A stretch of 18,059 bases of DNA, from UHGV virus genome UHGV-0072595, one strand, 5' to 3'. Source of the stretch: a virus. Each line of letters opens with the position of its first letter. Position 1 is the stretch's first letter. Shown one piece after another: positions 1-12,798 of the stretch. The notes under the pieces are model-generated. The model was given only the letters and a program-made list of their open reading frames with translations, was not told the origin of the DNA and did not search any database. The translations under genes and the position numbers were made by a program.

Positions 1-312
1 AAACTTGCCATTAACGATTCCATTTTTTCTTGTGCAGGATTTATTACCTTCTTTAATATATTCGCTTTCCCCTCCAACACATGAGGCTGAATATGGCTCA
101 GTTATACGAACCCATTCACCTTTTTTTTCTAGAAAATCTACGCCTTCCCTGAAAAATAGTTTCCCAGCCACTCCACATTTACTTGAAGGGCAGGTATGTC
201 TTTCCGTTCGATCAACAACAACCCATAGTTTTGATTCATTTTTTGCCATTGCCGATGGTATTTGAGATGAGACAATTAACGTAAGCCCTAAAATTAGTAT
301 TGATTTTTTCAT
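1..312 (-). CDS. Secreted protein of unknown function, 5' part only (gene runs off the left edge); N-terminus MKKSILILGLTLIVSSQIPSAMA then a Cys-containing mature region
   Basis: Hand translation of minus strand from ATG at 312: 104 codons with no stop to position 1; AGGAA Shine-Dalgarno 8 nt upstream; classic signal peptide (basic n-region, hydrophobic core, AxA-like site). Not in ORF track because no stop in window. Confidence 0.6.
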   Translation of the reverse strand, partial: MKKSILILGLTLIVSSQIPSAMAKNESKLWVVVDRTERHTCPSSKCGVAGKLFFREGVDFLEKKGEWVRITEPYSASCVGGESEYIKEGNKSCTRKNGIVNGKF

Positions 313-610
313 TGTAATTTCCTTTTACTTTTTACAAAGCGTTTAATCATGGCTGATTATCTCTAAGTGTAGTAACAGCCTTGTGCGAAACATGTTACCA
401 AATCGCCATTTCAGTGTATCCGCAGTTAGGCTGCCACTTCAAGGATTCCTAATTACATGGTACGTAAGCGTAAAATCCCGTTGGTTGGCGGGTAATAACT
501 CTGATCAAATCTCCCTTGTCTTTTGCTCTTACGTATGCAGCTCTTGTGTATTCAACCCAGGCCTCCAGTTCAGCAATACGCTTACTTCCATCCGAGATAA
601 CACCTTCTAC

Positions 611-889
611 TCACGCTGCTCGTTGAGTTTTGATTTTTGCTGTCTCCAGCTCAACACGCAGTTTCCCCACCGTTAGCGCAATATCCTCGTTCTCCTGGTC
701 GCGGCGTTTGATGTATTGCTGGTTTCTTTCCCGTTCATCCAACAATGCCAGCGCGATATCTGGCGAAAAGTGCTTCATAAAATCGTTAAGCGCATTAATT
801 CGCTGATCGAAAGGCATTACAGGTGCTTCACCAGCAATTTTTGTTTTTTCAGCGATTTCACGAAGCTTTTGATAATCAATCTTGCTCAC
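611..889 (-). CDS. Hypothetical protein (about 92 aa from GTG start)
   Basis: Track ORF 611..922; preferred start is GTG at 889, preceded by AAGGAGG at 6 nt spacing and overlapping the upstream stop (GTGA); no recognisable family. Confidence 0.5.
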   Translation of the reverse strand: MSKIDYQKLREIAEKTKIAGEAPVMPFDQRINALNDFMKHFSPDIALALLDERERNQQYIKRRDQENEDIALTVGKLRVELETAKIKTQRAA

Positions 890-1485
890 TGGTTGCCTCC
901 TTTGCGAATCTGTTCCGCCCATTCTTCAAGGGATTTCTCCGCATATTCACCAGACAGGCCATCAATCGGGTGCGGTTCATTAGCTAACTCTTCTTTCGCT
1001 GACAGAATCATGCGTGTAACGTCGAAAACTTCAGCCAAAGGCTTATTGATAAATCCGTGATTGAACGCAGCAGCAAGACGGCTTGCAGTGTAGTTAATCC
1101 CCTCATTGCGTGCTTCCGCGCGAATTTCAGCCAGAAAAGCATCGGTAGCTGGGTGTTCTGTCTGGCTATGCATTGCCCATTCAGATAAGTACTCGAGGCA
1201 ACGGCGAAACTCCTGCCAATCACTGCACATGTTTAGGTTTCCGCCTTCACACTCGAACTGGTAATTCTCTAAACGGTCTGCAAACGCTCTGCCATTCTCG
1301 ATGGCACCAAGTGGAGCATCATATTTCAGCCCCGCATTCTCCGCCGCCAGCGCCGCGCACTTGGCCTCCGCTTCAGCAAATTTACGCACCAGATATTCAG
1401 CGTTTGTTTCGTTAACCTTTAAATCTTGTGGGATGCATTTACCTTTTAGAAATCCATCCATCTCAATTAGTGACATTTGTTTCAT
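886..1485 (-). CDS. Hypothetical protein (about 199 aa)
   Basis: Track ORF 886..1503; preferred start ATG at 1485 forms an ATGA overlap with the upstream stop (1482-1484); no recognisable family. Confidence 0.6.
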
Positions 1486-1664
1486 TTCTTCCCACTCCGC
1501 CACATCGCATTCAGATATTTGTTTTGATTCACTGATGGAAAAGAATTTCTCTTAAGCAATTCCTCTCTCGATGGCATTGGCTTTACGCGTTGGCGAATAA
1601 TCATTTCTGCCGGAAGAATGCCGGGATTGTATGCAAGTCCTCTCATGGTAAATTCCTCAGTCAT
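1482..1664 (-). CDS. Hypothetical small protein (about 54-60 aa; start ambiguous between ATG 1664 and ATG 1646)
   Basis: Track ORF 1482..1799 trimmed to internal ATGs; ATG 1664 overlaps the upstream stop by 8 nt, ATG 1646 has a GAGGA SD. Confidence 0.4.
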
Positions 1665-1953
1665 TACTGATAGCGCCATAGCGTGAGCGGTAATTACGCA
1701 GGCGCGGTTCGATATATTCAGGGAAGTTGGTATATGTGGCTTTGCGGAATGGTCGGATTGATGTCTGGTAAATTCGCTCGCGTTCTTCTTTCTCTGCAAG
1801 CCATATACAGTGGCGAAATTCCTTTTCCTCTTTCGTTTCCTGCGGTAGCGACATTATCCGATCGTAGTTTTTTCTGAATTTATCCAGCACCTCCGATACG
1901 GAATTGCCGGAACAGCGGCGCGCGTCGTCCGCACCATACAGAGGCGCTGGCAT
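1657..1953 (-). CDS. Hypothetical protein (98 aa)
   Basis: Track ORF; AAGGA SD 7 nt upstream of ATG; starts 24 nt after the ssb stop. Confidence 0.55.
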
Positions 1954-1976
1954 AATGGAATCCTTATTTTGCTAAT

Positions 1977-2360
1977 TTAGAAGGGAATTGAATCGTCGTA
2001 TTCAGGATGATTTTGATGATTACTACTTTGCTGCTGCGGGCCATTTCCTGAAGCTGCAAATCCAATCTTTGCATTCAGTAATTCAAGAGTGATTGATTGA
2101 CCATTTTGCCCCTGATAAACATCAACCCTGATGTTTTCTCCGGTAATTTCTACAATGCCACCTTCAACAAGAACACTACGGTAGTAATCCGCTTGCGCTC
2201 CCGGCTTGGCAAATACAACGGCGCTGTAGTTTGTCCATTCTTTCTTTTTTGTCTGGCGATCGTAATACTGAACGCCAGCACGGATGTTGAATCCGATATT
2301 TTCCCCGGCCTGAAACTCTCTTACGGGCTTGTTTAGTCTTACAGTAATCGAATGTGCCAT
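1977..2360 (-). CDS. ssb: Single-stranded DNA-binding protein (phage SSB, about 127 aa)
   Basis: Track ORF 1977..2450 trimmed to ATG at 2360 (MAHSITVRLNK...); OB-fold-like N-terminus, Gly/Gln-rich linker and C-terminal acidic tail DDSIPF typical of bacterial SSB; start overlaps erf stop (TAATG). Confidence 0.85.
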   Translation of the reverse strand: MAHSITVRLNKPVREFQAGENIGFNIRAGVQYYDRQTKKKEWTNYSAVVFAKPGAQADYYRSVLVEGGIVEITGENIRVDVYQGQNGQSITLELLNAKIGFAASGNGPQQQSSNHQNHPEYDDSIPF

Positions 2361-2965
2361 TAAGCAGCCGCTCCTTCTAATTCGTCTCGTCTGATGTTGT
2401 AAACGTCCTGCGCTTTTTGCTGCTCCGGTGTGCCTTCGAGCATCTTCCACGCTTTGGCGAACGCCTGTTTAAGCTCTTCCACGGTGTTTTTCTGCAATGC
2501 TGCGTCAGTGAATGCTTTTAGAACCTGTTCAGGTGTAGGTGATGGTTTTGATTGCTTTGCTGCTGCGCTCTGCTGATGTTTATGCTCGTCTGTATCTGCA
2601 TCTTTCGCATCATCAATGCCGAACAAACCATTGAGGCAATACTTGCGTGCATAAGAGCTTGTAGCGCCCGTAACTTGTGCAGAATCCATTCCTTTCTTGC
2701 TTTCTTCCTCTCGTGCTAGTGCGGTTGCCGTATGACTGTTTTCGCCATCGGTAATAGTTGCCGTGGCTTTCACGTAATACCGATCACCAATCAACACAAC
2801 TTCATCGCTGATTGATAAAAACAGGCCATTCAGTAACGGCTTAACGCCTTCAAGAATGTCTTCGCAGCTTCTGTATTTATATTTACCGAATGAGTTGTAC
2901 TGATTCTTTGGCGCGTTCAGATTCTCCTGAATGGCTGCCAGTCTTGCGTAAAATTCTTTGCTCAT
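2360..2965 (-). CDS. erf: Erf-family single-strand annealing recombinase (P22 Erf-like, about 201 aa)
   Basis: Track ORF 2360..2995 trimmed to ATG 2965 (MSKEFYARLAAIQENLNAPKNQYNSFGKYKYRSCEDILEG...), matching my recollection of P22 Erf. Confidence 0.85.
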   Translation of the reverse strand: MSKEFYARLAAIQENLNAPKNQYNSFGKYKYRSCEDILEGVKPLLNGLFLSISDEVVLIGDRYYVKATATITDGENSHTATALAREEESKKGMDSAQVTGATSSYARKYCLNGLFGIDDAKDADTDEHKHQQSAAAKQSKPSPTPEQVLKAFTDAALQKNTVEELKQAFAKAWKMLEGTPEQQKAQDVYNIRRDELEGAAA

Positions 2966-3054
2966 ATGTTTGTTCTCAGAATGGACATGGCACAAGGAAA
3001 TAACGCTGATTTAATACTTCAGTCTTTGCCGCATTTAAAAATACGCGAACACCT

Positions 3055-3240
3055 TCACGATCTCCCTTCTGGCGATACATTAACGCCTGCTGAGTGTACA
3101 TGCGTCTCTGTAACTTGCTCTCCTTCACTGTGGTTGCAAGTGACATGCATATCTCCTTCGTTACCGATTAAATCTTTCATCTGACGAATGAATTCTTCGT
3201 CTGACCAGTTATCTGTAAAACTCATTTCCTGCGATACCAC
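3055..3240 (-). CDS. Small acidic hypothetical protein in the kil position (56-61 aa; GTG at 3240 or internal ATG)
   Basis: Track ORF; no good SD; position between the cIII-like ORF and erf. Confidence 0.3.
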   Translation of the reverse strand: MVSQEMSFTDNWSDEEFIRQMKDLIGNEGDMHVTCNHSEGEQVTETHVHSAGVNVSPEGRS

Positions 3241-3358
3241 GGAATGTTGATCGCTGATTTCATCGCTTTATTTGCTTCAAGCCACATTTTGGAATCACCA
3301 ATAAATCTGGCTATTACTGCTTTGTTCTGTGCAGCACGAAGCATCTGGTGATTAATGG

Positions 3359-3493
3359 CTATTTCATTGCGCATAACGCCTCCAGTTGTTTCTTTGCTGC
3401 TCTGATTAATTGTTTAATTCGGCGTGATAATTCAGATTCGTGCGGGTAGAAAGCGGACATGACGCCGCTACCCGCGAGCTGAAAGTGCATCAT
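3359..3493 (-). CDS. cIII-like small protein (about 44 aa)
   Basis: Track ORF 3359..3544 trimmed to ATG 3493 with AAGGAG SD at 6 nt; position (between ea10 and the recombination genes) and a short basic helical segment (ESELSRRIKQLIRAAKK) reminiscent of cIII; does not match lambda cIII closely. Confidence 0.45.
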   Translation of the reverse strand: MMHFQLAGSGVMSAFYPHESELSRRIKQLIRAAKKQLEALCAMK

Positions 3494-3568
3494 GGGTAAC
3501 TCCTTATATTTGATTGCATAACGAAAATGCCTCTCGTGAAGCATTATTGGTATGCGGTAAAGCCGCGC

Positions 3569-3937
3569 TCAGGCGGCTTTGATAGTCATATCATCTGAAT
3601 CAAATATTCCTGATGTATCGATATCGGTAATTCTTATTCCTTCGCTACCATCCATTGGAGGCCATCCTTCCTGACCATTTCCATCATTCCAGTCGAACTC
3701 ACACACAACACCATATGCATTTAAGTCGCTTGAAATTGCTATAAGCAGAGCATGTTGCGCCAGCATGATTAATACAGCATTTAATACAGCGCCGTGTTTA
3801 TTGAGTCGGTATTCAGAGTCTGACCAGAAATTATTAATCTGGTGAAGTTTTTCCTCTGTCATTACGTCATGGTCGATTTCAATTTCTATTGATGCTTTCC
3901 AGTCGTAATCAATGATGTATTTTTTGATGTTTGACAT
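3569..3937 (-). CDS. ea10: Ea10 protein (lambda early-left, 122 aa)
   Basis: Track ORF; sequence and length match my recollection of lambda Ea10; located left of ral as in lambda. Confidence 0.8.
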   Translation of the reverse strand: MSNIKKYIIDYDWKASIEIEIDHDVMTEEKLHQINNFWSDSEYRLNKHGAVLNAVLIMLAQHALLIAISSDLNAYGVVCEFDWNDGNGQEGWPPMDGSEGIRITDIDTSGIFDSDDMTIKAA

Positions 3938-3957
3938 CTATTCATATCCTCACAGAT

Positions 3958-3983
3958 AAAAAATCGCCCTCACATTGGAGGGC
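3958..3983 (-). terminator. Intrinsic terminator-like hairpin (GCCCTC/GAGGGC stem) followed by a U-tract on the leftward transcript, between ral and ea10 (tL2-like)
   Basis: Plus strand shows an A6 run then gccctcacattggagggc; on the minus strand this is hairpin plus U-run. Confidence 0.5.
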
Positions 3984-4119
3984 AAAGAAGATTTCCAATA
4001 ATCAGAACAAGTCGGCTCCTGTTTAGTTACGAGCGACATTGCTCCGTGTATTCACTCGTTGGAATGAATACACAGTGCTGTGTTTATTCTGTTGTTTATG
4101 CCAAAAATAAAGGCCACCA

Positions 4120-4320
4120 TCAGGCAGCCTTGTTATTCTGTTTACCAAGTTCTCTGGCAATCATTGCCGTCGTTCGTATTGCCCATTTATCGACATATTT
4201 CCCATCTTCCATTACAGGAAACATTTCTTCAGGCTTAACCATGCATTCCGATTGCAGCTTGCATCCATTGCATCGCTTGAATTGTCCACACCATTGATTC
4301 TTATCAATAGTCGTAGTCAT
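4120..4320 (-). CDS. ral: Ral restriction-alleviation protein (66 aa)
   Basis: Track ORF MTTTIDKNQWCGQFKRCNGCKLQSEC...; matches lambda Ral as I recall it. Confidence 0.9.
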   Translation of the reverse strand: MTTTIDKNQWCGQFKRCNGCKLQSECMVKPEEMFPVMEDGKYVDKWAIRTTAMIARELGKQNNKAA

Positions 4321-4390
4321 ACGGATAGTCCTGGTATTGTTCCATCACATCCTGCGGATGCTCTTCGAACTCTTCAAATTCTTCTTCCAT
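4304..4390 (-). CDS. Small acidic ORF (28 aa, MEEEFEEFEEHPQDVMEQYQDYPYDYDY), lambda orf28-like, overlapping the ral start by 17 nt
   Basis: Hand translation of minus strand; same size and same overlap with ral as lambda orf28 by my recollection. Confidence 0.55.
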   Translation of the reverse strand: MEEEFEEFEEHPQDVMEQYQDYPYDYDY

Positions 4391-4398
4391 ATATCACC

Positions 4399-4725
4399 TC
4401 AAATAAGTGGTTTGCTGCCTAATTTCATTTTCTGGCGACCAACACAAGTCACCCCCATTTCACTGCGTGGCTTGCTGTACCATGTGCGCTGATTCTTGCG
4501 CTCAATACGTTGCAGGTTGCTTTCAATCTGTTCGTGGTATTCAGCCAGCACTGTAAGGTCTATTGGATTCAGTGCGCTTTCTACTCGTGATTTCGGTTTG
4601 CGATTCAGCGAGAGAATAGGGCGGTTAACTGGTTTTGCGCTTACCCCAACCAACAGGGGATTTGCTGCTTTCCATTGAGCCTGTTTCTCTGCGCGACGTT
4701 CGCGGCGGCGTGTTTGTGCATCCAT
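4399..4725 (-). CDS. N: Antiterminator N (lambda N-like; C-terminal residues differ slightly from my recollection of lambda N)
   Basis: Track ORF MDAQTRRRERRAEKQAQWKAANPLLVGVSAKPVNRPILSLNRKPKSRVESALNPIDLTVLAEYH... including the arginine-rich boxB-binding motif; downstream of nutL on the pL transcript. Confidence 0.9.
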   Translation of the reverse strand: MDAQTRRRERRAEKQAQWKAANPLLVGVSAKPVNRPILSLNRKPKSRVESALNPIDLTVLAEYHEQIESNLQRIERKNQRTWYSKPRSEMGVTCVGRQKMKLGSKPLI

Positions 4726-4914
4726 CTGGATTCTCCTGTCAGTTAGCTTTGGTGATTGGATGGCCGGCGCTGAACCCCGGCTTACTGGTTAGAGCGCCCG
4801 CACTACCAGTGACGCTGTCTTGAGGCGCAGATTGGTTACTGCTTGCCATGAGCGCTGTTTATACATTGGTCGAGCATCAGCCTGCTCATTCATCCAATCC
4901 CAAAGCCTTCTGCT

Positions 4915-4945
4915 TTGAATGCTGCCCTTCTTCAGGGCTTAATTT
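4915..4945 (-). promoter_or_regulatory. nutL (boxB hairpin GCCCTGAAGAAGGGC at 4915-4929 and boxA CGCTCTTA at 4938-4945, read on the minus strand)
   Basis: Exact lambda boxA and boxB motifs seen on the reverse complement. Confidence 0.85.
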
Positions 4946-4993
4946 TTAAGAGCGTCACCTTCATGGTGGTCAGTGCGTCCTGCTGATGTGCTC

Positions 4994-5056
4994 AGTATCA
5001 CCGCCAGTGGTATTTATGTCAACACCGCCAGAGATAATTTATCACCGCAGATGGTT
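4994..5056 (-). promoter_or_regulatory. pL promoter with operators OL1 (4996-5012), OL2 (5020-5036), OL3 (5040-5056); -10 GATACT (4994-4999) and -35 TTGACA (5017-5022) on the minus strand
   Basis: Three 17-bp TATCACCGC/CAACACCGC-type operator half-site pairs identical in form to lambda OL; promoter hexamers at 17-bp spacing. Confidence 0.85.
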
Positions 5057-5202
5057 ATCTGTATGTTTTTTATATGAATTTATTTTTTGCAGGGGGGGCA
5101 TTGTTTGGTAGGTGAGAGATCTGAATTGCTATGTTTAGTGAGTTGTATCTATTTATTTTTCAATAATACAATTGGTTATGTGTTTTGGGGGCGATCGTGA
5201 GG

Positions 5203-5229: not shown

Positions 5230-5664
5230 TTATTCTTGTTCTCTGGTCAAATTATATAGTTGGAAAACAAGGATGCATATATGAATGAACGATGCAGAGG
5301 CAATGCCGATGGCGATAGTGGGTATCATGTAGCCGCTTATGCTGGAAAGAAGCAATAACCCGCAGAAAAACAAAGCTCCAAGCTCAACAAAACTAAGGGC
5401 ATAGACAATAACTACCGATGTCATATACCCATACTCTCTAATCTTGGCCAGTCGGCGCGTTCTGCTTCCGATTAGAAACGTCAAGGCAGCAATCAGGATT
5501 GCAATCATGGTTCCTGCATATGATGACAATGTCGCCCCAAGACCATCTCTATGAGCTGAAAAAGAAACACCAGGAATGTAGTGGCGGAAAAGGAGATAGC
5601 AAATGCTTACGATAACGTAAGGAATTATTACTATGTAAACACCAGGCATGATTCTGTTCCGCAT
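5230..5664 (-). CDS. rexB: RexB (membrane component of the Rex abortive-infection/exclusion system, 144 aa)
   Basis: Track ORF; multi-pass hydrophobic protein of the right size immediately downstream of rexA as in lambda. Confidence 0.9.
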   Translation of the reverse strand: MRNRIMPGVYIVIIPYVIVSICYLLFRHYIPGVSFSAHRDGLGATLSSYAGTMIAILIAALTFLIGSRTRRLAKIREYGYMTSVVIVYALSFVELGALFFCGLLLLSSISGYMIPTIAIGIASASFIHICILVFQLYNLTREQE

Positions 5665-5679
5665 AATTACTCCTGATAA

Positions 5680-6519
5680 TTAATCCTTAACTTTGCCCAC
5701 CTGCCTTTTAAAACATTCCAGTATATCACTTTTCATTCTTGCGTAGCAATATGCCATCTCTTCAGCTATCTCAGCATTGGTGACCTTGTTCAGAGGCGCT
5801 GAGAGATGGCCTTTTTCTGATAGATAATGTTCTGTTAAAATATCTCCGGCCTCATCTTTTGCCCGCAGGCTAATGTCTGAAAATTGAGGTGACGGGTTAA
5901 AAATAATATCCTTGGCAACCTTTTTTATATCCCTTTTAAATTTTGGCTTAATGACTATATCCAATGAGTCAAAAAGCTCCCCTTCAATATCTGTTGCCCC
6001 TAAGACCTTTAATATATCGCCAAATACAGGTAGCTTGGCTTCTACCTTCACCGTTGTTCGGCCGATGAAATGCATATGCATAACATCGTCTTTGGTGGTT
6101 CCCCTCATCAGTGGCTCTATCTGAACGCGCTCTCCACTGCTTAATGACATTCCTTTCCCGATTAAAAAATCTGTCAGATCGGATGTGGTCGGCCCGAAAA
6201 CAGTTCTGGCAAAACCAATGGTGTCGCCTTCAACAAACAAAAAAGATGGGAATCCCAATGATTCGTCATCTGCGAGGCTGTTCTTAATATCTTCAACTGA
6301 AGCTTTAGAGCGATTTATCTTCTGAACCAGACTCTTGTCATTTGTTTTGGTAAAGAGAAAAGTTTTTCCATCGATTTTATGAATATACAAATAATTGGAG
6401 CCAACCTGCAGGTGATGATTATCAGCCAGCAGAGAATTAAGGAAAACAGACAGGTTTATTGAGCGCTTATCTTTCCCTTTATTTTTGCTGCGGTAAGTCG
6501 CATAAAAACCATTCTTCAT
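5680..6519 (-). CDS. rexA: RexA (sensor component of the Rex system, 279 aa)
   Basis: Track ORF MKNGFYATYRSKNKGKDKRSINLSVFLNSLLADNHHLQ...; matches lambda RexA as I recall it; cotranscribed with cI. Confidence 0.9.
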   Translation of the reverse strand: MKNGFYATYRSKNKGKDKRSINLSVFLNSLLADNHHLQVGSNYLYIHKIDGKTFLFTKTNDKSLVQKINRSKASVEDIKNSLADDESLGFPSFLFVEGDTIGFARTVFGPTTSDLTDFLIGKGMSLSSGERVQIEPLMRGTTKDDVMHMHFIGRTTVKVEAKLPVFGDILKVLGATDIEGELFDSLDIVIKPKFKRDIKKVAKDIIFNPSPQFSDISLRAKDEAGDILTEHYLSEKGHLSAPLNKVTNAEIAEEMAYCYARMKSDILECFKRQVGKVKD

Positions 6520-6631
6520 AATTCAATCCATTTACTATGTTATGTTCTGAGGGGAGTGAAAATTCCCCTAATTCGATGAAGATTCTTGCTCAATTGTTAT
6601 CAGCTATGCGCCGACCAGAACACCTTGCCGA

Positions 6632-7348
<717 letters not shown>

Positions 7349-9080: not shown

Positions 9081-9188
9081 ATGAAATCAAAAATCAAATC
9101 GCTACTGGTCGCTGGTTATAACCACGGCTGGTTAAGTATTTCGTTTGTCGATTTCTGGTTTAAAAATCTCAATCTGAGGGAATCATGA
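9081..9188 (+). CDS. Possible small coupled ORF (35 aa) between the O-like gene and the primase-helicase
   Basis: Hand translation MKSKIKSLLVAGYNHGWLSISFVDFWFKNLNLRES; start 4 nt after the O stop; stop overlaps the primase-helicase ATG (ATGA). Confidence 0.3.
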   Translation: MKSKIKSLLVAGYNHGWLSISFVDFWFKNLNLRES

Positions 9189-11065
9189 CGCCAAGTGAAC
9201 TTAGCGACCTGCTTTGGGCGCAGGTTGACAGGGTGGCTCCGCACCTGTTGCCAAACGGCAAGAAAGAGGGGCATGAGTGGGTTGCCGGTAACATCAACGG
9301 TGACAAGGGAAACAGCCTTAAGGTCAACCTTAGCGGCAAGAAAAAATGGGCTGATTTCGCTGAGGGAGACGGCGGTGACATGCTTGATTTGTGGATGGCA
9401 TGTCGTGGAATTAACCTGCATCAGGCTATGCAGGAAGCGAAAGCATTTCTCGGTATCAAGGATGACGATCACCATTTCGATGCCAGACGTGAGAAAAAAT
9501 TCTCCAGACCTGATCGCAAGAAAATCGCCCGCTACGTTACCAGAACAGAATCCCATCTTGAGTACCTGCAATCGCGTGGCATATCGCCAGAAATCGTAAA
9601 GCGCTACGAGGTTGTCAGCGGCAAGGTGTGGAATGGAGAGCGGGAACTGGATGCTCTGGTGATTCCGTACAAACGCGATGGTGAGTTGTTGCAGGTCAAG
9701 CGAATCAGCACTGAGCGCCCGGACGGGAAGAAAGTCATTATGGCAGAAGGTGATTGCGAACCTTGTCTGTTCGGATGGCAGGCTCTGGACGCTGGCGTGA
9801 GGGCGGTTGTACTTTGCGAAGGCGAAATTGATTGTATGAGCTATGCGCAATACGGCATCTCGGCGTTATCCGTACCGTTTGGTGGAGGGAAAGGCGCTAA
9901 GCAACAGTGGATTGAGTTTGAGTATCACAACCTCGACAGGTTTGAGGAAATATTCATCTCGATGGACGTTGATGATGTTGGTCGTGAAGCCGCAAGGGAA
10001 ATCGCAAGCCGACTCGGTGAACATCGTTGCCGTCTTGTTACTCTGCCGTACAAAGACATCAACGAATGCCTGATGAACGGTGTTACCGAGGATGCAATCT
10101 GGCAGTACATCGGCACGGCATCCTACTTTGATCCTGAAGAACTCTACAGCGCGCGAGAGTTTTACCAGGACACTATCAACGCTTTCTACGGCAAGCAGCA
10201 GTATCTGTTTAATCCACCGTGGGAATCTCTGGCAGATAAATTCCAGTTCCGTGAGGCCGAGTTGACGCTGGTCAATGGTGTGAACGGTCACGGAAAAACG
10301 GAGGTTGTCGGGCATATGGCACTTGAGGCAATGCGTCAGGGTGTGAAGACGTGCATCGCGTCACTTGAGCTGAAGCCTGGTATTCTCCTTAAGCGCCTTA
10401 CCCGTCAGGCAACGTGCTGCAAGATGCCGCCAGTGCTGGAAATTGACTCTGCATTTAAATTTTATGACGAAAGACTTTGGGTGTTTGGCCTGACCGGAAC
10501 GGCGAAAGCCGACAGGCTGATCGAAATATTCGACTACGCTCGCCGCCGATACGGGATCCAGTTATTCATCATCGACAGCCTGATGAAATGTGGCATAGGC
10601 GACGATGACTATAACGGGCAGAAGGCGTTTGTTGACTCGATTTGCGACTTCAAAAACAAAACAAACTCCCACGTCATTCTCGTTACTCACTCGCGAAAAG
10701 GAGACAGCGAAGAAAAACCAACCGGGAAAATGGACGTAAAAGGCTCTGGAGCGATAACAGACCTGACAGACAACCTTTTCATCATCTGGCGTAACAAGGC
10801 TCGCGAGAGAGCGTTACAGAGAGTTCAGAGTGGTGAAAAGATGTCAGAGAAGGACGAACAGGTACTGGCGTCTCCGGCATCTGTTTTGATGCTTGAAAAA
10901 CAACGAAACGGCGAAGGTTGGGAAGGTGGTGTCCCGTTGTTCCTTGACGAGCAATCGCACCAGTTCCTGCAACTTGAATCAGGATCGCCATATAGCTACA
11001 TCGCCAATATGCCGAAATCGGAATATGACGAGGCGTGGCGACAGGAAAACGTGACGGAGTATTAA
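9185..11065 (+). CDS. Bifunctional DNA primase-helicase (N-terminal primase/Toprim-like region, C-terminal DnaB/RecA-like helicase), replaces lambda P (626 aa)
   Basis: Track ORF; acidic Toprim-like motifs (CEGEIDCMS, MDVDDVGRE), Walker A NGVNGHGKTE and Walker B-like LFIIDSLMK in the C-terminal half. Confidence 0.8.
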   Translation: MTPSELSDLLWAQVDRVAPHLLPNGKKEGHEWVAGNINGDKGNSLKVNLSGKKKWADFAEGDGGDMLDLWMACRGINLHQAMQEAKAFLGIKDDDHHFDARREKKFSRPDRKKIARYVTRTESHLEYLQSRGISPEIVKRYEVVSGKVWNGERELDALVIPYKRDGELLQVKRISTERPDGKKVIMAEGDCEPCLFGWQALDAGVRAVVLCEGEIDCMSYAQYGISALSVPFGGGKGAKQQWIEFEYHNLDRFEEIFISMDVDDVGREAAREIASRLGEHRCRLVTLPYKDINECLMNGVTEDAIWQYIGTASYFDPEELYSAREFYQDTINAFYGKQQYLFNPPWESLADKFQFREAELTLVNGVNGHGKTEVVGHMALEAMRQGVKTCIASLELKPGILLKRLTRQATCCKMPPVLEIDSAFKFYDERLWVFGLTGTAKADRLIEIFDYARRRYGIQLFIIDSLMKCGIGDDDYNGQKAFVDSICDFKNKTNSHVILVTHSRKGDSEEKPTGKMDVKGSGAITDLTDNLFIIWRNKARERALQRVQSGEKMSEKDEQVLASPASVLMLEKQRNGEGWEGGVPLFLDEQSHQFLQLESGSPYSYIANMPKSEYDEAWRQENVTEY

Positions 11066-11853: not shown

Positions 11854-12274
11854 ACTAAGAAGCCCCATCCATCAGCAGAACGCCATTCAAGCTATCCAGC
11901 AAATTCTTCCAGACCCAACCAAACCAATCGTAGTAACCATTCAGGAACGCAACCGCAGCTTAGACCAAAACAGGAAGCTATGGGCCTGCTTAGGTGACGT
12001 CTCTCGTCAGGTTGAATGGCATGGTCGCTGGCTGGATGCAGAAAGCTGGAAGTGTGTGTTTACCGCAGCATTAAAGCAGCAGGATGTTGTTCCTAACCTT
12101 GCCGGGAATGGCTTTGTGGTAATAGGCCAGTCAACCAGCAGGATGCGTGTAAGCGAATTTGCGGAGCTATTAGAGCTTATACAGGCATTCGGTACAGAGC
12201 GTGGCGTTAAGTGGTCAGACGAAGCGAGACTGGCTCTGGAGTGGAAAGCGAGATGGGGAGATCGGGCTGCATGA
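11831..12274 (+). CDS. ninB: NinB (Orf family recombination mediator, 147 aa)
   Basis: Track ORF MVRKLTFELRSPIHQQNAIQAIQQILPDPTKPIVVTIQERNRSLDQNRKLWACLGDVSRQVEWHGRWLDAESWK...; matches lambda NinB as I recall it. Confidence 0.9.
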   Translation: MVRKLTFELRSPIHQQNAIQAIQQILPDPTKPIVVTIQERNRSLDQNRKLWACLGDVSRQVEWHGRWLDAESWKCVFTAALKQQDVVPNLAGNGFVVIGQSTSRMRVSEFAELLELIQAFGTERGVKWSDEARLALEWKARWGDRAA

Positions 12275-12798
12275 CTATCAAATCAAATACGCCAGCACAC
12301 GACAAGGACTGCTGGCAAACGCCGCTTTGGCTTTTTGATGCACTGGATATTGAGTTTGGATTCTGGCTGGATTCGGCAGCGAGCGACAAAAATGCTCTGT
12401 GTGCTCACTGGCTAACTGAGGCCGACGACGCGCTCAATTCTGAGTGGGTAAGCCACGGTGCAATCTGGAATAACCCACCGTACAGCAATATCAGGCCGTG
12501 GGTGGAAAAAGCCGCTGAGCAGTGCATACAACAGCGACAGACGGTAGTTATGCTTGTGCCAGAGGATATGTCAGTCGGATGGTTCAGCAAGGCTCTGGAG
12601 AGTGTCGACGAAGTTCGCATCATCACTGATGGACGGATTAATTTTATCGAACCATCGACAGGGCTGGAGAAGAAGGGAAACAGCAAAGGCTCCATGCTGC
12701 TGATTTGGCGACCGTTCATCAGTCCTCGACGGATGTTTACTACCGTATCCAAAGCGGCATTGATGGCGATCGGGCAGGGCGTCAGGAGGGCGGCATGA
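12271..12798 (+). CDS. Phage DNA N6-adenine methyltransferase (Dam family; motif WNNPPYSN), about 175 aa
   Basis: Track ORF 12211..12798 trimmed to ATG 12271 (ATGA overlap with ninB stop); NPPY catalytic motif of N6-adenine/N4-cytosine MTases; small size and no adjacent restriction enzyme. Confidence 0.8.

Follow-up and report, generated by a model that had tools for sequence, protein, structure and literature searches.

The abc2–eaE accessory gene set in the early-left operon of a lambdoid phage

In phage P22, the recombination gene erf is followed by abc1, abc2, orf56, eaE and, further on, eaD. The structure of P22 Abc2 on RecBCD was solved by cryo-EM (PDB 8b1t), in which residues 3–66 are the part modelled on RecC while Pro68 engages PpiB (eLife 2022;11:e83409). 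From its position, Abc2 was suggested by this structural study possibly to let the phage recombinase load onto the single-stranded DNA produced by RecBCD, but the way in which Abc2 aids Erf is still a model in the literature (eLife 2022;11:e83409; for the mechanism see also Genome Res 2025;35:1767). In phage HK446, the order is gp33, erf, gp31, abc2, gp29, gp28, and gp27, with gp29 separating abc2 from the DUF2737 gene. The gp33 proteins of HK75 and HK446 were reported to trigger the P2 OLD defence and proposed to manipulate RecBCD, and HK446 gp27, named Oad2, inhibits the P2 OLD abortive-infection nuclease (bioRxiv 10.64898/2026.07.10.737580, July 2026). Oad2 binds the P2 OLD tetramer and keeps it from being activated, and is the one member of its family for which this was shown; a homologue from HK75, 54% identical to Oad2, gave no inhibition of P2 OLD (bioRxiv 10.64898/2026.07.10.737580). 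The evidence on Oad2 comes from this single unreviewed preprint. The Ea22 protein of phage lambda forms a tetramer of 182-aa subunits, whose C-terminal domain is dimeric, and favours lysogeny (PMC10834534, PMC7093339), and the complete Ea22 architecture consists of three parts including this C-terminal domain (PMC10834534).

The window analysed here is the whole 18,059-nucleotide stretch of DNA from the virus genome UHGV-0072595. An initial annotation had recognised a cluster of four minus-strand ORFs in it, and could name no phage family for any of the products. All four ORFs (designated ORF1 to ORF4 in the direction of transcription) are present where they had been placed, and they are real genes as judged from the conservation of their junctions and from the coding constraint visible in pN/pS, which was 0.15–0.22 for ORF1, 0.24–0.42 for ORF2, 0.53–0.60 for ORF3, and 0.39–0.42 for ORF4. 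By sequence comparison, however, every product could be named: ORF1 as Abc2, ORF2 as a DUF2737 protein of the P22 orf56 type, ORF3 as a member of the EaE family, and ORF4 as a fragment of an Ead/Ea22-type gene. These are the standard accessory genes downstream of erf in P22- and HK-type lambdoid phages. The four-gene set is already known; each protein falls into a catalogued family, and an identical sequence of each is publicly deposited. Confident homology to Ea/Abc-type proteins was thus found for all four, while among the matched families functional characterisation covers only Abc2 and one relative of ORF3, Oad2. The plus-strand ORFs overlapping the cluster matched no PHROG or phage family, NCBIfam gave zero matches for six proteins queried, and Rfam at gathering threshold gave none for positions 1–5200. 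The single weak match in PADLOC, of ORF3 to CARF8 (E 0.002), was treated as chance.

The cluster was confirmed to lie at the distal end of an N-antiterminated pL operon, with erf and an ssb-like gene upstream of it. A lambda-type pL promoter (TTGACA, 17 nt, GATACT) was detected by consensus scan on the minus strand at 4994..5022; it is followed by N, Ral, DUF2528, cIII, and Kil, and rexB, rexA, and cI lie on its other side. Neither promoter-like nor terminator-like sites were detected between positions 450 and 1953, which points to a single-transcript context. Within the operon, all on the minus strand, a homologue of HK75/HK446 gp33 (3055..3225; phrog_2123) was located by tblastn, with 95% identity to HK446 gp33 over 57 aa (E 3e-35). 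The ORF at 2976–3146, tried as the gp33 equivalent, was rejected since it has no similarity and the homologue lies in another frame. [quoted passage not shown] This HK446 gp31-type gene stands between erf and abc2 in place of the abc1 of P22, and its product bears no similarity to P22 Abc1. No significant match to P22 Abc1, P22 Arf, or HK446 gp29 was obtained anywhere in the window.

ORF1 (1657..1953, minus strand, 98 aa) is full-length Abc2 (anti-RecBCD protein 2) as judged from its sequence. The Pfam profile PF11043 (Anti-RecBCD_p2) matched with an E value of 1.9e-60 and 201.5 bits against a cut-off of 25, residues 1–98 being aligned to model positions 1–97 of 97; phrog_656 ('abc2 anti-RecBCD') likewise covered positions 1–98 of 98. 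ORF1 is 91% identical to P22 Abc2, and its E value against PDB 8b1t/8b1u was 5e-55. Pro68 is kept, and within residues 3–66 the only differences from P22 Abc2 are at positions 11, 32, and 65. The two proteins, both encoded in the same operon as erf, differ slightly in the C-terminal third, where one residue more makes ORF1 98 aa long against 97 aa for P22 Abc2. By homology to the protein in the published structure, ORF1 would bind RecC. The exact sequence was found on 170 contigs, under the NCBI name 'phage anti-RecBCD protein', and AAGGA is located 7 nt upstream of the ATG. The gene belongs to the pL-operon recombination module with the Erf-type annealing protein, erf being one gene upstream. 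The initial annotation had seen no Gam or Abc homologue here and had proposed one of the four proteins as a candidate to act on RecBCD in its place; action on RecBCD is supported, by homology and for ORF1, but the absence that it was to fill does not exist.

ORF2 was identified as a DUF2737 protein by PF10930 (E 3.8e-31, 107.2 bits, cut-off 25) and by phrog_1117, which covers positions 1–54 of 54. The identity was 75% to P22 orf56 and 96% to HK446 gp28. An ORF of about 60 aa starting at 1664, overlapping ORF1 by 8 nt (1657–1664), had been assigned originally, but this is probably not the true start: the upstream ATG at 1664 has no SD sequence and is not conserved, the corresponding site being AATAAC in P22 and SF11, while HK446 has another upstream neighbour. 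In alignments with P22 orf56 and with the profiles of Pfam and PHROG, the match begins at Met7 of the long form. Because the conserved start is the ATG at 1646, located 10 nt past the abc2 stop and preceded by the SD sequence GAGGA that overlaps the abc2 stop codon, the 8-nt overlap is not real and is replaced by a 10-nt gap. The gene is accordingly 1482..1646 (minus strand, 54 aa). It does not differ in any notable way from P22 orf56, HK97 gp38, and HK446 gp28, and agrees with this type in its 10-nt spacing from abc2 and in its overlap with the following gene. The exact 54-aa protein is encoded on at least 1000 contigs. We found no report on the function of DUF2737 or orf56 in the literature.

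ORF3 (886..1485, minus strand, 199 aa) is a member of the EaE/Oad2 family by sequence, matching phrog_614 over its full length (E 3.8e-80); no Pfam match was obtained. It is 35% identical to P22 EaE (E 8e-24), and 38% identical to HK446 gp27 (Oad2) by BLASTP, or 49% over aligned columns (E 2e-34). With Oad2 it shares the N-terminal ~40 residues (~92% identical), an invariant 11-letter motif, the terminal LRKGGNQ, and the genomic slot. In contrast, a ~28-aa coiled-coil insert found in Oad2, HK75 gp28, and SF11 EaE is missing from ORF3, and Oad2 is devoid of the ~60-aa C-terminal module of ORF3, which resembles P22 EaE. The family is large, with at least 8000 sequence clusters; the exact ORF3 sequence was found on 30 contigs, and one member of its cluster is named 'Eae protein'. 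The name 'DUF4752', given by some sources to the closest relatives of 220 aa, was not borne out when one of them (P0053) was scanned against Pfam. The AlphaFold2 model, based on an alignment of 48 sequences, is all-helical but unreliable (pLDDT 56, pTM 0.33), and thus gives no structural support for any role of ORF3. The GGAG sequence upstream of the start serves as an SD-like motif. Of the suggestion that the cluster carries some other counter-defence function, ORF3 is the one gene for which a case can be made, indirectly and through its homology to the anti-OLD Oad2. Anti-OLD activity cannot be transferred to ORF3 by homology, however, because the HK75 homologue is inactive in spite of its closer relation to Oad2. 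The function was shown for HK446 gp27 only, and to list ORF3 as a functional Oad2 would not be warranted.

ORF4 (611..889, minus strand), with 92 codons and a GTG start preceded at 6 nt by AAGGAGG, is an incomplete gene. It is a truncated gene of Ea22 type and is probably decaying. The PF13935 profile (Ead_Ea22) gave an E value of 7e-20 and 72.4 bits against a cut-off of 27, but covered model positions 1–110 of 139 only. ORF4 shares with lambda Ea22 and P22 EaD the N-terminal segment and the coiled-coil core LLDERE.NQQYIKRRDQENEDIALTVGKLRVELE, in which the identity to the core motif of P22 EaD is 80%, and it is a mosaic with a crossover inside this conserved core. After the start of the coiled coil the frame is cut behind codon 92 by an in-frame TGA, and the C-terminal domain of Ea22 proteins is absent; ORF4 thus carries the N-terminal and coiled-coil signature and falls short of the complete three-part Ead/Ea22 architecture. 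Beyond the TGA, the translated frame runs on through 53 codons before a TAG ends it (449..610, minus strand), and the first ~17 codons of this remnant (VEGVISDGSKRIAELEA) still align with the intact Ea22-type proteins of SF11 and D6. Intact relatives range from 169 to 215 aa. The identical TGA with its flanks was found in E. coli AMSHJX01, where RefSeq labels the gene a pseudogene, and in phage Chlobot. Of the seven other places in which the exact ORF3 is encoded, six carry an intact Ea22 gene of 176 aa behind it.

The gene order gp33-like, erf, ssb-like, abc2, DUF2737, eaE, ea22 was found with identical junctions on dozens of phage contigs, and HK75, SF11, and HF4s have the same layout as the window. 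We surveyed the junctions in 80 Abc2-encoding IMG/VR loci. DUF2737 was located downstream of abc2 in all 74 loci with enough sequence, 52 of which have the 10-nt gap, and an EaE-type gene overlaps DUF2737 by the same 4 nt in 46 of 47 loci. The exact architecture of the window was detected in 11 of the 80 loci and is the joint commonest. In 19 of the 80, DUF2737 is directly followed by an Ea22-type N-terminus, and no EaE-type N-terminus is present. The overlaps described in the initial annotation, ATGA at 1482–1485 between ORF2 and ORF3 and GTGA at 886–889 between ORF3 and ORF4, are present together with the SD-like AAGGA and AAGGAGG, and the former overlap is shared by HK446, HK75, and P22. 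The conservation of the junctions in the cluster greatly exceeds what chance would give. The exact ORF3 with DUF2737, and with Ea22 where the contig is long enough, was also detected behind RecT/Gp157 modules that lack Abc2 and Erf.

These observations altogether indicate that the region is very probably an ordinary distal pL operon of a lambdoid phage of P22/HK97 type with lambda immunity, composed of two mosaic modules and not of one four-gene unit. It is ordinary because all four genes are the known P22-type abc2–eaE accessory set, and the division into two is based on the occurrence of ORF3 and DUF2737 behind Abc2-less RecT/Gp157 modules and on the separation of abc2 from DUF2737 by gp29 in HK446. 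The first module, for recombination, would include the gp33-like gene, erf, the ssb-like gene, and abc2; the second would be a separate and very common accessory set of DUF2737, eaE, and ea22, linked in translation by the 4-nt start/stop overlaps. Erf would be the recombinase which Abc2, by its position, might let load onto the single-stranded DNA made by RecBCD. That the four proteins are of no recognised family and one of them is a novel RecBCD inhibitor, taking over from a missing Gam or Abc, is highly improbable. The position downstream of erf and ssb in the pL operon is indeed correct, as is the general expectation that this stretch carries host-takeover and counter-defence genes, and no function has been demonstrated for ORF2 or ORF3 themselves; but the Abc function is provided by ORF1, the gp33-like gene upstream of erf is a second proposed RecBCD manipulator, and catalogued families with publicly available exact sequences account for all four. 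We also consider it quite unlikely that DUF2737 and EaE form an obligate two-protein unit, for instance a small adaptor or regulator with an effector. The near-constant adjacency in the survey and the joint travel of the pair behind unrelated recombination modules would fit such a unit, but HK446 gp27 alone is enough to inhibit OLD (bioRxiv 10.64898/2026.07.10.737580), and adjacency in mosaic phages may merely reflect common recombination boundaries. The pairing is not obligate because 19 of the 80 loci proceed from DUF2737 to an Ea22-type N-terminus with no EaE.

Within the two-module organisation, ORF4 could still be a functional short variant of Ea22, or be extended by read-through of the TGA, instead of decaying. 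The excellent SD sequence, the GTGA overlap with ORF3, the open frame past the TGA, and the recurrence of the TGA-bearing 3′ segment (at least 99% identical in 81 records of E. coli, and joined to no fewer than two different N-terminal variants) argue for this possibility. We hold it doubtful in view of the missing C-terminal domain of Ea22 proteins (PMC10834534), the pseudogene label of the equivalent gene in RefSeq, and the intact genes at most of the other exact-ORF3 sites; the segment itself gives no evidence of selection because its DNA is identical among the relatives that carry it. As for ORF3, since the tested family member, Oad2, binds the P2 OLD tetramer, its most likely role would be to bind directly to, and neutralise, an OLD-type or similarly RecBCD-status-sensing abortive-infection nuclease, which would otherwise be triggered by the phage's own manipulation of RecBCD. 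It is unlikely that ORF3 is a functional Oad2 orthologue, specific for the P2-type OLD tRNase and shielding the phage from the activation of OLD by gp33 and Abc2. The similarity to Oad2 with common terminal motifs, the same slot directly after DUF2737 with the ATGA overlap, and the near-identical copy of the gp33 trigger on the same operon all point in that direction, but the overall identity is low, the middle and C-terminal modules differ, a homologue closer to Oad2 is inactive against P2 OLD, and a pN/pS of ~0.55 with strong modular variation suggests a quickly diversifying specificity. Tentatively, and with a rather low probability, ORF3 may be a diverged anti-defence protein of the Oad2 family, retargeted by its P22-EaE-like C-terminal module to another OLD-family or RecBCD-status-sensing abortive-infection nuclease.

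The identification of the abc2–eaE genes is of little consequence in itself, being routine annotation of a mosaic early-left operon of lambdoid type, and it removes a false lead because the RecBCD inhibitor supposed to be missing is present as Abc2. Interest is left only in the question whether ORF3, a diverged EaE/Oad2 variant, blocks OLD-type defence. The operon unites a homologue of the OLD trigger (gp33), the RecBCD modulator Abc2, and a diverged relative of the sole known inhibitor of P2 OLD, and so offers a natural test case for whether EaE-family variants differ in anti-defence specificity, an idea taken from the preprint (bioRxiv 10.64898/2026.07.10.737580). If ORF3 is retargeted as tentatively proposed, the very large, modular EaE family, always paired with DUF2737, would be a fast-diversifying library of inhibitors matched to triggers, such as gp33 and Abc2, encoded in the same operon.

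The initial annotation described four minus-strand ORFs between 611 and 1953, and all four were found as described: ORF1 (1657-1953, 98 aa, ATG start), ORF2 (1482-1664 in its long form, 60 aa), ORF3 (886-1485, 199 aa, ATG start), and ORF4 (611-889, 92 aa, GTG start). The genomic context was also given correctly. A lambda-type pL promoter (TTGACA, 17 nt, GATACT; 5022-4994) lies on the same strand as the ORFs and is followed in order by N, Ral, DUF2528, cIII, Kil, a 56-aa gene, erf, and an ssb-like gene. The start/stop overlaps ATGA (1482-1485) and GTGA (886-889) are both real, and SD-like motifs stand upstream of the starts of ORF1 (AAGGA, 7 nt), ORF3 (GGAG), and ORF4 (AAGGAGG, 6 nt). No promoter-like or terminator-like sites were found within 450-1953; plus-strand ORFs overlapping the cluster matched no phage family, and the Rfam and NCBIfam searches gave no matches and PADLOC nothing meaningful. 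The proteins had been regarded as unrecognised, but all four genes belong to named families.

Judged from its sequence, ORF1 is Abc2, with an end-to-end match to Pfam PF11043 (Bacteriophage P22 anti-RecBCD protein 2; E 1.9e-60), further matches to phrog_656 ('abc2 anti-RecBCD') and to the Abc2 chain of PDB 8b1t/8b1u (E 5e-55), and 91% identity to P22 Abc2. NCBI lists the exact sequence as 'phage anti-RecBCD protein [Escherichia coli]', and it occurs on 170 contigs. Between residues 3 and 66, the region of Abc2 modelled on RecC in the cryo-EM study (eLife 2022;11:e83409), ORF1 departs from the P22 protein at positions 11, 32, and 65 alone; it retains Pro68, the residue that engages host PpiB (eLife 2022;11:e83409). 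Abc2, counted among four anti-RecBCD types of lambdoid phages (Genome Res 2025;35:1767), leaves isolated RecBCD almost unchanged as a helicase and nuclease; it lies close to the proposed ssDNA exit channel, a position from which it may block the response to Chi and let the phage recombinase load (eLife 2022;11:e83409). Because of the high identity and the conserved key residues, it is safe to infer that ORF1 would share this mechanism. The claim that no Abc homologue exists here was mistaken, and with it the central idea that a novel RecBCD inhibitor should be sought in the cluster; what stands of the RecBCD interpretation is that one gene of the cluster is predicted to act on RecBCD.

ORF2 is assigned to DUF2737 by its match to PF10930 (E 3.8e-31), and is 75% identical to P22 orf56 and 96% to HK446 gp28. 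No literature on DUF2737 function was found. The 8-nt overlap with ORF1 claimed at 1657-1664 depends on an upstream ATG without SD, where the window reads AATGAC against AATAAC in P22 and SF11; the DUF2737 gene of HK446 has a different upstream neighbour. The Pfam, PHROG, and P22 orf56 alignments all begin at Met7. Conservation points to the ATG at 1646 as the start, 10 nt past the abc2 stop codon and with a GAGGA SD that overlaps this stop; the resulting 54-aa form is present on at least 1000 public contigs.

ORF3 is placed in the EaE family by a full-length match to phrog_614 (E 3.8e-80) and 35% identity to P22 EaE (E 8e-24); the 'EaE' proteins of SF11 and HF4s also align with it, and the Pfam scan gave no match. 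The family comprises at least 8000 clusters at 90% identity. For its function, the sole pointer is a preprint of July 2026 (bioRxiv 10.64898/2026.07.10.737580), which reports that HK446 gp27 (Oad2) binds the tetramer of OLD, the abortive-infection nuclease of P2, and prevents its tRNase activation. OLD is triggered by gp33 of HK75 and HK446, and the HK75 Oad2 homologue, 54% identical, does not inhibit P2 OLD (bioRxiv 10.64898/2026.07.10.737580). Homology of ORF3 to Oad2 is clear from the alignment (E 2e-34), with an overall identity of only 38%. The two proteins share the N-terminal approximately 40 residues, an invariant motif, and the LRKGGNQ end, but ORF3 lacks the coiled-coil insert of Oad2 and carries instead a C-terminal module like that of P22 EaE. 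The AlphaFold2 model (pLDDT 56) was too poor to justify a fold search. Our best guess is that ORF3 would neutralise an OLD-type or similar nuclease through direct binding; conserved activity against P2 OLD itself is unlikely. Some sources call the closest longer relatives (220 aa, e.g. P0053; 85% identity) 'DUF4752 domain-containing protein'. Scanned against Pfam, P0053 showed no DUF4752, only a sub-threshold HofO match, and the name may be outdated or propagated from another record.

ORF4 had been taken for a complete gene, but its reading frame is terminated by an in-frame TGA (611-613) and stays open for 53 more codons to a TAG at 449-451. It matches Pfam Ead_Ea22 (E 7e-20) only over model positions 1-110 of 139, and has the Ea22 core motif in common with P22 EaD. 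The first approximately 17 codons after the TGA (VEGVISDGSKRIAELEA) align with intact Ea22-type proteins of SF11 and D6. In lambda, Ea22 forms a tetramer, promotes lysogeny, and has a distinct C-terminal domain (PMC7093339, PMC10834534), which ORF4 lacks. The gene is a mosaic, its 5' part resembling the SF11 and D6 variants, with the crossover inside the universally conserved Ea22 core (window approximately 650-752). Its 3' segment, TGA included, has an identical counterpart that occurs with at least 99% identity across 81 E. coli records; RefSeq labels the gene there a pseudogene. In many E. coli prophages, the TGA-bearing segment stands behind a different N-terminal variant. This would reflect either a pseudogenised segment that spreads by recombination through the conserved Ea22 core, or a short form that is tolerated or useful; the simplest reading of ORF4 is that of a decaying gene.

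Approximately 135 nt beyond the Ea22 remnant lies a minus-strand gene at 1-312 that runs off the end of the window and whose product begins with a signal-peptide-like stretch (MKKSILILGLTLIVSSQIPSAMA...). This product matches phrog_8310 (unknown function) over positions 1-104 of 204, with a sub-threshold SH3_3 match, and the gene has the look of a moron. In both E. coli AMSHJX01 and phage Chlobot, this gene likewise comes after the Ea22 pseudogene.

On the other side of the cluster, the ssb-like gene (1977-2360, minus, 127 aa) is 96% identical to HK446 gp31, ends in a DDSIPF tail, and has phrog_44 as its sole family match, with none in Pfam. It fills the slot of P22 abc1 without similarity to Abc1; no homologue of P22 Abc1, P22 Arf, or HK446 gp29 was found in the window. 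A 56-aa gene at 3055-3225 (minus), overlapping in another frame a 56-aa ORF at 2976-3146, is 95% identical to HK446 gp33, which is reported to be sufficient to trigger P2 OLD and was proposed as a new RecBCD manipulator (bioRxiv 10.64898/2026.07.10.737580). Further genes linked to defence, or otherwise unusual, are found in the window at 4120-4320 (minus), 5230-7345 (minus), 9185-11065 (plus), and 12211-12798 (plus): the antirestriction gene ral, an immunity region of lambda type (rexB-rexA-cI), a 626-aa primase-helicase (Toprim and DnaB-like) beside an O-type initiator, where lambda has P, and, within the nin region, an adenine methyltransferase of Dam type.

The order in the window (gp33-like, erf, gp31-like ssb, abc2, DUF2737, eaE-like, ea22 fragment) parallels P22 (erf, abc1, abc2, orf56, eaE, orf45, eaF, eaD) and HK446 (gp33, erf, gp31, abc2, gp29, gp28, gp27), and the plan is common to HK75, SF11, HF4s, and one E. 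coli prophage. Junctions were surveyed in 80 IMG/VR loci, the closest Abc2 relatives among at least 561 and thus biased to near kin. DUF2737 lay downstream of abc2 in all 74 loci with enough sequence, at the same 10-nt gap in 52 and with a gp29-type gene inserted in 16; DUF2737 was in turn followed by an EaE-type N-terminus, overlapping it by the same 4 nt, in 46 of 47. The exact order of the window was the tied commonest architecture (11/80). With P22, SF11, and HK446 as references, pN/pS was 0.15-0.22 for abc2, 0.24-0.42 for DUF2737, 0.53-0.60 for ORF3, and approximately 0.4 for ORF4.

The window corresponds to ENA contig ERZ773167 NODE_1276. At the seven other places that encode the exact ORF3, the 54-aa DUF2737 gene always stands ahead of it with this overlap, and an intact 176-aa Ea22-type gene comes after it at six. 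In five such loci (L091, L093-L095, L097), DUF2737 and ORF3 stand behind a RecT/Sipho_Gp157 module without Erf or Abc2, and Ea22 is present where the contig reaches far enough. This arrangement, together with the gp29 insertion in HK446, shows two modules rather than one cluster: abc2 goes with the genes for recombination, and a mosaic module of its own is made up of DUF2737, eaE, and ea22. Four of the five contigs have a 104-aa unannotated gene in the abc2 slot, and dATP/dGTP pyrophosphohydrolase and NYN-domain genes lie further downstream.

The window follows the gene order of P22, HK97, and HK446, and its exact proteins have already been deposited in public databases.
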